Source: Planktothrix tepida (lineage in GTDB: Bacteria > Cyanobacteriota > Cyanobacteriia > Cyanobacteriales > Microcoleaceae). Taken from it: a stretch of 64,000 nt of DNA. Numbering within the stretch: the stretch's first letter is position 1; each line of letters starts with the position of its first letter. This document shows positions 6,802-7,323 of the stretch, one piece after another. A model generated the notes under the pieces. The model saw only the letters and a list, made by a program, of their open reading frames with translations. It did no database searches and had not been told where the DNA came from. Position numbers and translations under genes: made by a program. The stretch lies in the NCBI RefSeq assembly GCF_904830955.1, contig NZ_LR882970.1. The stretch is one strand, 5' to 3'.

Positions 6802-7323
6802 CTATCTATATTTTTGAATCCATTTTTTCTTGTTGATTAAAATGTGTTTTTCAATATTAGGAAAAATTGCTCCTAAGCATTGAATAAATAGAGAGGGAAT
6901 TTGTGCTAAATAAATCAAGGGTTTTTCTTTTCTTTGTAATTTAATTATTTTGACTGGATCATCTCTAAAAATGATTTTAGCTAAACAATTTATTTTAAAA
7001 TAACGAACTTGATCACAGTATATATAAATAGCTTGAATTTGATAATATTCCAGATTATCTAAAAATCGCTTTGAATATAATAAATTGTGTAAAGTTGTTA
7101 AAGATTCTTCTTCTAAACATATATCTATATCTAATATTTTAGTTCTGATTAATTCTTTCATTAATTGAGCTTCAGAAATATTTGATCCTGTAAAACTACA
7201 TCCCCCACTAAGAATTAATTTATCTATCTTATCCTCCGTAATATAAAAAATTACCAAATCAATATAATTTTTTAAGTTATCATCTACAATATTACCATAG
7301 CCACAAACAATTCCTATTTTCAT
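6802..7323 (-). CDS. DUF218/YdcF-like (SanA/ElyC family fold) cytoplasmic protein, AT-rich gene
   Basis: KLILSGGCSFTGSNISEAQLMKEL...ICLEEESLTTLHNL matches the DUF218 signature (ivSGG ... sEA ... E..S.nT.eN). No signal peptide or TM segment, unlike the periplasmic SanA/ElyC members. The sequence is very AT-rich compared with sqdB and cpcT. Confidence 0.5.
   Translation of the reverse strand: MKIGIVCGYGNIVDDNLKNYIDLVIFYITEDKIDKLILSGGCSFTGSNISEAQLMKELIRTKILDIDICLEEESLTTLHNLLYSKRFLDNLEYYQIQAIYIYCDQVRYFKINCLAKIIFRDDPVKIIKLQRKEKPLIYLAQIPSLFIQCLGAIFPNIEKHILINKKKWIQKYR

Follow-up and report, generated by a model that had tools for sequence, protein, structure and literature searches.

An NB-ARC/TPR/DUF218 gene cassette in filamentous cyanobacteria and the possible role of its DUF218 protein

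The locus and its DUF218 protein

The window analysed here is a stretch of 64,000 nucleotides from the cyanobacterium Planktothrix tepida (contig NZ_LR882970.1), which carries on its minus strand three closely spaced genes, referred to below as the cassette. The first encodes an NB-ARC/nSTAND3 NTPase with a helix-turn-helix (HTH) domain of the XRE type at its N-terminus, the second a tetratricopeptide repeat (TPR) protein, TPR444, and the third, which is the main subject of this work, a small protein of the DUF218 family (Table 1). Only 5 nt separate the end of the NB-ARC open reading frame (ORF) from the start of the TPR ORF, and the TPR stop codon ends at position 7343, so that the 173-aa ORF lies 19 nt after a TPR gene of the same strand, as an original prediction made from the letters of the window had stated. 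That prediction had also described the DUF218 gene as extremely AT-rich, and its GC content (23.6%, versus 38.6% for the whole window) is indeed the lowest of all 522-nt stretches there. On its 3' side, the gene is followed by cpcT and then by a gene for an NAD-dependent epimerase/dehydratase, putatively sqdB.

The protein is recognised by the Pfam DUF218 profile (PF02698) with an E-value of 1.6e-8 and a score of 35.0 bits, above the gathering cut-off of 27.6, in a match limited to aa 31-101, i.e., profile positions 27-86 of 133. The domain call that had been proposed is thus upheld over this part of the protein, and the motifs on which it was based were located at aa 39-41 (SGG), 50-52 (SEA) and 71-77 (EEESLTT). 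No meaningful match was obtained in an NCBIfam search, and the closest protein in the database, with 99% identity, bears the annotation 'ElyC/SanA/YdcF family protein [Planktothrix pseudagardhii]'. Close homologues form a tight subfamily of 37 clusters, 37-99% identical and 168-194 aa long; among 1.8 billion proteins, about 215 representatives match at E<1e-10, and 12 of them at E<1e-30. Twenty-one residues are invariant in the subfamily (C7, G8, Y9, Y20, G40, G41, E51, A52, E71, L78, H79, N80, I101, C103, D104, R107, K110, E133, Y138, Q141 and P155). These are mostly polar and, according to the alignment and a structural model, cluster on the C-terminal edge of the central sheet, where the core motifs SGG, (S/T)EA and E..S..T..N are also found; as far as the alignment tells, the pocket of the protein appears intact and its residues do not vary.

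An AlphaFold2 model computed from the subfamily alignment (pLDDT 92, pTM 0.88) shows, after DSSP assignment, a Rossmannoid of five strands with two helices after it at the C-terminus. This is the three-layer, HUP-like fold of YdcF, and the comparison with the Escherichia coli protein for which the original prediction had called gave an alignment of 141 residues. That the protein is of the cytoplasmic type, as also foreseen, is supported as well, and it starts directly with strand beta1. Hydropathy reaches its sole maximum (Kyte-Doolittle value of 1.78) in the C-terminal helix at aa 135-153, in which Y138 and Q141 are invariant and P143, Q148 and G151 nearly so, and this hydrophobic helix is conserved in the subfamily together with the basic helix that follows it. 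Given its borderline hydropathy, the helix at aa 135-153 was considered as a transmembrane segment, but this was rejected as the main reading: the model is compact and of high confidence, the helix carries invariant polar residues, and 141 residues of the protein align with YdcF. From the model, the two helices are read as part of the fold, and they may still allow association with a membrane surface.

Comparison with characterised members of the family places the protein apart from them. YdcF of E. coli (PDB 3CA8) is a cytoplasmic, S-adenosylmethionine (SAM)-binding DUF218 protein with an adenine-nucleotide alpha-hydrolase-like fold. It is 15% identical to the window protein and longer (266 versus 173 aa), has C126 and M155 at the positions of T77 and R107, and differs from the subfamily at the specific invariants C7-G8-Y9, H79, C103-D104, R107, K110, E133 and Y138; moreover, we know of no linkage of YdcF to genes for STAND (signal transduction ATPases with numerous domains) proteins. 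When the sequences in the PDB were searched with the family profile, no DUF218 chain was returned; the only matches, to pantothenate kinase with E about 0.2, were due to chance. The relationship to YdcF is visible by fold only. SanA, ElyC and YgjQ, for their part, are periplasmic DUF218 proteins anchored in the inner membrane that balance the synthesis of peptidoglycan and enterobacterial common antigen (PMC12176290, PMC3879167), and a Thr-His-Glu triad (T125, H149, E182) has been reported to be essential in SanA (PMC12176290). The window protein belongs to the same Pfam family and keeps the triad threonine as T77, and its relatives are suggested to be tied to glycan or polyprenyl-phosphate metabolism by a glycosyltransferase fusion and by their neighbourhood (see below). 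In contrast to these proteins, it lacks an N-terminal anchor, is not periplasmic, and is encoded in an operon resembling those of nucleotide-binding leucine-rich-repeat receptors (NLRs) instead of a housekeeping context. The full triad is not present either: H149 is replaced by the invariant R107, and E182 probably corresponds to the invariant Q141, in a C-terminal region where the alignment register is unreliable. G40, G41, E51, A52, E71 and N80 (invariant) and T77 (near-invariant) all align with their counterparts in SanA and YdcF. Single-sequence hhalign comparisons gave weak probabilities (0.7% with SanA, 11.6% with YdcF) but supplied the motif register, which was confirmed by a 177-sequence MAFFT alignment running through intermediate relatives. 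The protein thus belongs to a separate clade of the superfamily, cytoplasmic and of short form, and is not a SanA/ElyC-type enzyme.

Table 1. Features of the cassette in the window (aa numbering refers to the encoded protein)
Feature	Position	Strand	Description
DUF218 gene, third of cassette	6802..7323	-	ORF with ATG start, 173 aa, 20.3 kDa, pI 8.6
TPR protein gene (TPR444), second of cassette	7343..8677	-	444 aa, divergent; Pfam TPR_12 (E=1.2e-12), sub-threshold TPR_MalT
XRE-HTH + NB-ARC/nSTAND3 NTPase gene, first of cassette	8683..10086	-	467 aa
Shine-Dalgarno-like motif AAGGA	7331..7335	-	7 nt 5' of the DUF218 ATG, within the 19-nt gap; read from the sequence
DUF218 motif EEESLTTLHN (aa 71-80)	7084..7113	-	T77 = SanA T125; H79 invariant in the subfamily (E, D or Q in wider relatives and in SanA/YdcF)
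DUF218 motif CDQVRYFK (aa 103-110)	6994..7017	-	R107 = SanA H149, K110 = SanA R152; from the wide MAFFT alignment
Two C-terminal helices of DUF218	6808..6921	-	Hydrophobic aa 135-153, basic aa 155-172; from DSSP on the model, hydropathy, hydrophobic moment and charge
TPR N-terminal connector (aa 17-77)	8447..8629	-	tblastn, about 30% identity (query 17-77) to partner genes in L022, L025 and L031
XRE (Cro/C1)-type HTH of the NTPase	9871..10086	-	N-terminus, aa 1 to about 72; variable output/adaptor slot
Walker A, GITGIGKT (aa 119-126)	9709..9732	-	NTPase
Walker B-like, YLVVMDS (aa 201-207)	9466..9486	-	NTPase; D and S columns nearly invariant in the family alignment

Conservation of the cassette and exchange of its modules

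Loci for comparison, designated L001 onwards, were collected from one representative-genome scan, one metagenome scan and individual protein look-ups. The order NB-ARC, TPR, DUF218 recurs in 16 loci of cyanobacterial type (the window, L001-L006, L013, L014, L017-L020, L028/L029, L035/L036 and L037), which fall into 13 clusters at 90% identity of the DUF218 protein and 10 at 70%, and whose lineages include Planktothrix, Crinalium, Tolypothrix and Calothrix. A gene of the TPR444 type lies directly 5' of the DUF218 gene in all 16 loci of this type with readable upstream DNA, at distances of -14 to +54 nt, and an NB-ARC gene is present 5' of the TPR444 gene wherever the contig extends that far. 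The co-occurrence of DUF218 and NB-ARC genes on which the original prediction had staked its proposal is thus found in 16 loci, and the linkage of the three genes is far beyond chance. An all-against-all comparison of ORFs shows that the three cassette genes alone are common to these loci, while the flanks differ from lineage to lineage; the cassette is self-contained, and is mobile or horizontally shuffled among filamentous cyanobacteria. In L037, the NTPase and TPR genes are separated by an inserted Uma2 (PF05685) gene at 2764-3339 (+), with TPR and DUF218 still adjacent. A phage or plasmid origin was considered and rejected: no relatives were found in IMG/VR and none on plasmids, and a gut phage contig gave one weak, partial match (34% identity over 64%).

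A further feature of the cassettes is their base composition. GC content drops stepwise along the genes, from 0.36-0.44 for NB-ARC to 0.29-0.33 for TPR and 0.24-0.29 for DUF218, in six of the seven cassettes measured (the window, L001, L004, L013, L019 and L028, the exception being L017), and this is independent of the overall GC content of the locus (0.30-0.44). It may reflect either a low-GC donor of the sensor/DUF218 module or selection on expression.

The first gene of the cassette encodes a P-loop NTPase of the STAND class, with Walker A and Walker B motifs and scores of 31.3 bits for Pfam nSTAND3 (cut-off 27.2) and 30.7 bits for NB-ARC (cut-off 23.5). Its family is large, with more than 1000 cyanobacterial homologues in hundreds of clusters at 55-62% identity, compared with which the families of its partners are tiny (15 close clusters for the TPR444 type and 37 for DUF218). 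The TPR protein has the features of the repeat sensor of such a unit: its gene follows that of the NTPase within 5 nt, a homologue in which NB-ARC and TPR are fused exists (P0296), and its N-terminal connector of about 60 aa is the sole region that TPR444 has in common with the TPR partners, unrelated in other respects, of NB-ARC genes in other two-gene units. The fusion supports the view that the TPR protein is a split-off sensor arm of the STAND NTPase, and the connector would be the part that docks to the NTPase. Some loci contain TPR arrays, with two to four different TPR genes, all carrying this connector, behind a single NB-ARC gene (L025/L026 from a plasmid of Nostoc sp. NIES-3756, L027 and L031), which suggests that one NTPase can be served by several alternative split sensor arms. 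The common connector, the arrays and the fusion together point to TPR proteins being exchangeable split-off sensor arms.

Most of the sampled members of the NTPase family occur in two-gene units (dyads) of NTPase and TPR genes without DUF218. Such dyads, found in Planktothrix rubescens (L022), Microcoleus (L024), a Nostoc plasmid (L025) and Anabaena (L027), look complete. The NTPase of L027, from Anabaena UHCC 0253, is 80% identical to that of the window, whereas the TPR partner reaches just 25% identity and DUF218 is absent; in L028, an NTPase with 79% identity is accompanied by a TPR444-type partner (57%), and here DUF218 is present (53%). This contrast indicates that DUF218 follows the sensor gene and not the NTPase. 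What does vary within the family is the N-terminus of the NTPase, as expected for the effector or adaptor position of NLR-like systems: it is an XRE HTH in the window, a SEFIR/TIR domain in the Tolypothrix and Calothrix three-gene loci (triads) L004/L005 (E=1.3e-14 and 2.1e-12), and a PNP_UDP_1 nucleoside phosphorylase domain in other relatives (P0293 and others). TIR and PNP are classic effector domains of conflict systems (PMC7159879). DUF218 is found alongside both the HTH and the TIR/SEFIR forms of the NTPase. Across the loci, DUF218 thus stays the same in kind and goes with one TPR subtype, the polymorphic slot being the N-terminus of the NTPase.

Possible roles of the DUF218 protein

Homologues outside the cyanobacteria, 35-47% identical to the window protein, keep all 21 invariants and are encoded by genes that stand alone, without the cassette; such stand-alone proteins make it unlikely that DUF218 is intrinsically toxic. 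In Ca. Moduliflexus, the DUF218 gene adjoins a homocysteine-biosynthesis gene, and in L021 a gene for a family 2 glycosyltransferase (GT2), and no STAND genes were found at these loci. In L011/L012, it adjoins a gene for a conserved protein of about 1100 aa, with C-terminal TPRs detected by Pfam, which was considered as a STAND link outside cyanobacteria and rejected, the protein having no similarity to the NB-ARC profile and no Pfam match in its N-terminal 620 aa; judged by its sequence, it reads as a predicted multi-pass membrane protein and gives a GT-C-like impression. Two kinds of fusion are seen among the representatives listed. In P0049, two GT2 domains are fused to a DUF218 domain of the window type, and P0183 (623 aa, metagenomic) combines a PqqD-like N-terminus, resembling the recognition element of ribosomally synthesised and post-translationally modified peptides (RiPPs), with two tandem DUF218 domains. 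The latter is a hint that peptides or RiPP precursors may be the substrates of certain DUF218 proteins. Together with the GT2 neighbour in L021, the fusion in P0049 suggests that the chemistry of DUF218 probably concerns nucleotide-linked or polyprenyl-phosphate-linked glycan intermediates, a theme that fits the published roles of SanA and ElyC in the balance of peptidoglycan and enterobacterial common antigen precursors (PMC12176290).

The reading that we favour, with a rough probability of 0.45, is that DUF218 acts as a sensor-side partner, i.e., as a small-molecule-binding or -processing subunit of the TPR arm whose state gates the NTPase. It is the co-inheritance of DUF218 with the TPR subtype that places it on the sensor side. 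The NB-ARC NTPase would be the switch, its N-terminal domain serving as an exchangeable output or adaptor, and the TPR protein would be a split-off sensor arm docking through its N-terminal connector. DUF218 would then be a compact cytoplasmic subunit of YdcF fold bound by its cognate TPR arm, and its ligand or substrate state would gate the NTPase, with the output delivered by the NTPase's own N-terminal domain. The most plausible ligand would be a glycan precursor linked to a nucleotide or to polyprenyl phosphate.

Several points weigh against this proposal. The pairing of TPR444-type genes with DUF218 is not obligatory, as two loci have such a gene without DUF218: in L031/L032, two more TPR genes stand in its place after the TPR444-type gene, and in L030, from Ca. 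Thiomargarita nelsonii, the TPR gene is followed by genes for GmrSD_N (180 aa) and HEPN_MAE_28990 (234 aa) proteins, the first of which overlaps the TPR stop codon. No fusion of DUF218 to TPR or STAND domains was found among 150 listed representatives or among TPR homologues. HTH domains are not known to have a killing or arrest activity, and in the triads of HTH type DUF218 is the sole enzyme-like protein, which suits an effector. Finally, a function of the cassette in conflict or immunity would follow from domain logic and not from recognition by PADLOC, a search of which gave no match for DUF218, generic TPR or P-loop matches alone for its partners, and no meaningful model for the three proteins.

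DUF218 could instead be an enzymatic effector that is switched on or released by the oligomerised NTPase/TPR complex and depletes or damages SAM or a nucleotide- or polyprenyl-phosphate-linked envelope precursor, leading to growth arrest (abortive infection), with the HTH merely regulating the operon. This is the main alternative, although it is less likely than the favoured reading. The gene is the last of a tightly spaced operon whose linkage to the NTPase, as expected of a trans-effector, is conserved in 16 loci, its invariant, mostly polar residues at the sheet edge are reminiscent of an enzyme pocket, and the sister systems use the metabolite-depleting TIR and PNP domains. The genes of L030 for GmrSD_N and a HEPN RNase, in the position after TPR, could represent an effector swap; however, they may be independent neighbouring defence genes, and L030 is the only locus in which the third position, otherwise occupied by DUF218 or empty, holds anything else, so that the polymorphism typical of effector slots is not apparent. 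Moreover, DUF218 coexists with a TIR/SEFIR N-terminus in L004/L005, close relatives are dyads devoid of it, and stand-alone homologues with identical invariants have neither partner nor antitoxin. An adaptor shared homotypically with the NTPase, like the effector-associated domains (EADs) described by Kaur et al. (2020), was not found: the model shows one domain of DUF218 followed by two helices, and no region of the protein resembles the N-terminus of the NTPase. The original prediction had taken the placement of DUF218 to suggest that it is the output module of the system. The conserved operon linkage stands, but the claim as worded is not supported, given the dyads without DUF218, the position of the variable slot and the fact that DUF218 follows the TPR gene.

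A function outside immunity is improbable, although it has precedents. The HTH-NB-ARC protein and its TPR partner would form a signal-sensing transcription factor like MalT or AfsR, and DUF218 would be an accompanying or regulated pathway enzyme, e.g., for a step in the metabolism of envelope or sheath glycans. Transcription factors of the STAND type that sense through TPRs form an established class (MalT, AfsR, GutR), in which a small molecule or a partner protein gates the sensor; MalT, for example, is under the control of maltotriose and of its inhibitors MalK, MalY and Aes. Like MalT and the AfsR/SARP-NB-ARC-TPR proteins, the cassette joins a STAND NTPase to an HTH of DNA-binding type and to a sensor made of TPRs, with sub-threshold TPR_MalT matches in the latter, and the links and fusions of DUF218 relatives to glycosyltransferases and the action of SanA and ElyC in envelope glycan balance would agree with such a pathway. 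However, its HTH, unlike that of MalT and AfsR, is XRE-type, N-terminal and exchanged within the same family for TIR/SEFIR or nucleoside phosphorylase domains, which are hallmarks of conflict systems. Other points against it are the patchy distribution, the recombination of modules, as seen where NTPases that are 80% identical have unrelated sensor genes, the arrays of TPR genes acting as alternatives, and the three STAND systems that share about 10 kb in the window. No glycan-pathway genes are conserved beside the triad. As to mere adjacency, in which DUF218 would be an unrelated small gene lying 3' of a STAND operon, the different GC content of the gene and consensus promoter-like hexamers within the TPR gene (e.g., at 7711-7683 on the minus strand) could be cited in its favour. 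It is nonetheless essentially excluded, since this gene order, with its close spacing, is found again in 13 distinct loci with otherwise unrelated flanks and promoter-like matches barely exceed expectation (27, versus 20 +/- 3.9 in shuffled sequence).

A broader proposal, which is tentative and on balance unlikely, covers both the sensor and the effector readings. The short cytoplasmic DUF218 clade might be an unrecognised component of NLR-like immunity, a Rossmannoid receptor or enzyme, held by a TPR arm of its own, for an envelope-glycan precursor linked to a nucleotide or to polyprenyl phosphate. Through it, the STAND switch would either monitor the metabolism of envelope precursors, in a guard or co-sensor arrangement, or shut it down, DUF218 being then a new class of effector.

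Genomic surroundings, known systems and significance

The cassette is not the only STAND system in this part of the window. On the same strand, 147 nt 5' of it, lies a gene (10234-11244) whose 336-aa product combines a CHAP amidase/peptidase domain with RTX calcium-binding repeats and is not conserved beside the triad in other loci. Beyond it, two genes from the cassette and divergent to it, an 881-aa protein (11434-14079, +) combines an HTH-like N-terminus, a STAND NTPase (AAA_16/nSTAND1/NB-ARC), a Ser/Thr kinase, which matches the PADLOC PD-T4-6 models (E=4e-68), and TPR repeats. A second, unrelated dyad of NB-ARC (470 aa) and TPR (452 aa) genes, overlapping by 20 nt and without DUF218, follows at 14593-17344 (+), and a further TPR gene (441 aa) at 18669-19994 (+). 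Three STAND systems are thus found in about 10 kb of the window, like a small NLR-like gene island. On the other side of the cassette, between the putative sqdB and a repeat-protein gene, genes for an orphan protein of 142 aa and for a DUF6575 protein of 158 aa, 4 nt apart and with a GC content of 0.30-0.32 (3856-4765, -), may constitute another accessory module. The repeat protein (1769-3739, -; 656 aa), without Pfam match, has a very long ELQRQQ(E/Q) heptad-like run, after which come a segment that is hydrophobic and, at the C-terminus, two repeated modules; the run causes a strong AT skew at 2250-3000. The window also contains very large ORFs on the plus strand, at 26413-31797 (1794 aa), 38470-42105 (1211 aa) and 42251-49003 (2250 aa).

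Related loci show some accessory genes of their own. In the dyads of P. rubescens (L022/L023, 5459-5770, -) and Microcoleus (L024, 5465-5782, -), a gene of about 104 aa encoding a DnaA_N-like_STI protein (PF23007, E=1.6e-12) lies divergently 5' of the HTH-NB-ARC gene; it is absent from the window cassette. A Uma2 gene is also found just 5' of the Microcoleus dyad (L024, 4849-5409). In L030, the TPR444-type STAND pair (3703-4959, +) is that of a gammaproteobacterium, which suggests cross-phylum transfer, and the GmrSD_N and HEPN genes, with a further gene resembling PhdYeFM antitoxins, give this locus a defence-island-like context.

With its STAND core, TPR sensor and variable N-terminal domain (HTH, TIR/SEFIR or PNP), the cassette resembles the NLR-like STAND systems for conflict that are found in multicellular bacteria, as well as the antiviral STAND proteins (Avs), and it shares with them an enrichment in filamentous cyanobacteria and a modular shuffling (Kaur, Burroughs, Iyer and Aravind 2020, PMC7159879), the study from which the Pfam nSTAND families stem. 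It differs from them in that the sensor arm is encoded by a separate gene and in that one sensor subtype comes with a third, invariant DUF218 gene, which, unlike in the systems of Kaur et al. (2020), no EAD-type adaptor couples to the NTPase. No mention of DUF218, YdcF, SanA or ElyC was found in that study (PMC7159879) or in a 2026 survey of defence STAND proteins, and a literature search returned no paper linking DUF218 with NB-ARC, STAND or anti-phage functions, apparent matches being to DUF2185, DUF2188 or envelope papers. The NB-ARC/TPR/DUF218 cassette, in which the NTPase and TPR components are of a known class and the association with DUF218 is robust, is therefore apparently undescribed.

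Proteins of the DUF218 family (SanA, ElyC, YdcF, YgjQ) are widespread and give clear envelope phenotypes in E. coli, yet they still lack an assigned biochemical activity. A cytoplasmic member of 173 aa with a sharply conserved pocket, encoded in a three-gene cassette, offers a compact system in which to look for a ligand, a partner and a phenotype. If DUF218 is a plain accessory without phenotype, the cassette would be one more variant among the diverse STAND operons of cyanobacteria. If the favoured reading is true, STAND systems would gain a tripartite architecture, made of an NTPase with exchangeable output, a split and exchangeable TPR arm and a small enzyme linked to the sensor, and the cassette may link NLR-type switches to the metabolism of envelope precursors or nucleotide cofactors. 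Should DUF218 belong to NLR-like immunity, whether as sensor or as effector, this would provide the first biochemical handle on the function of the family.

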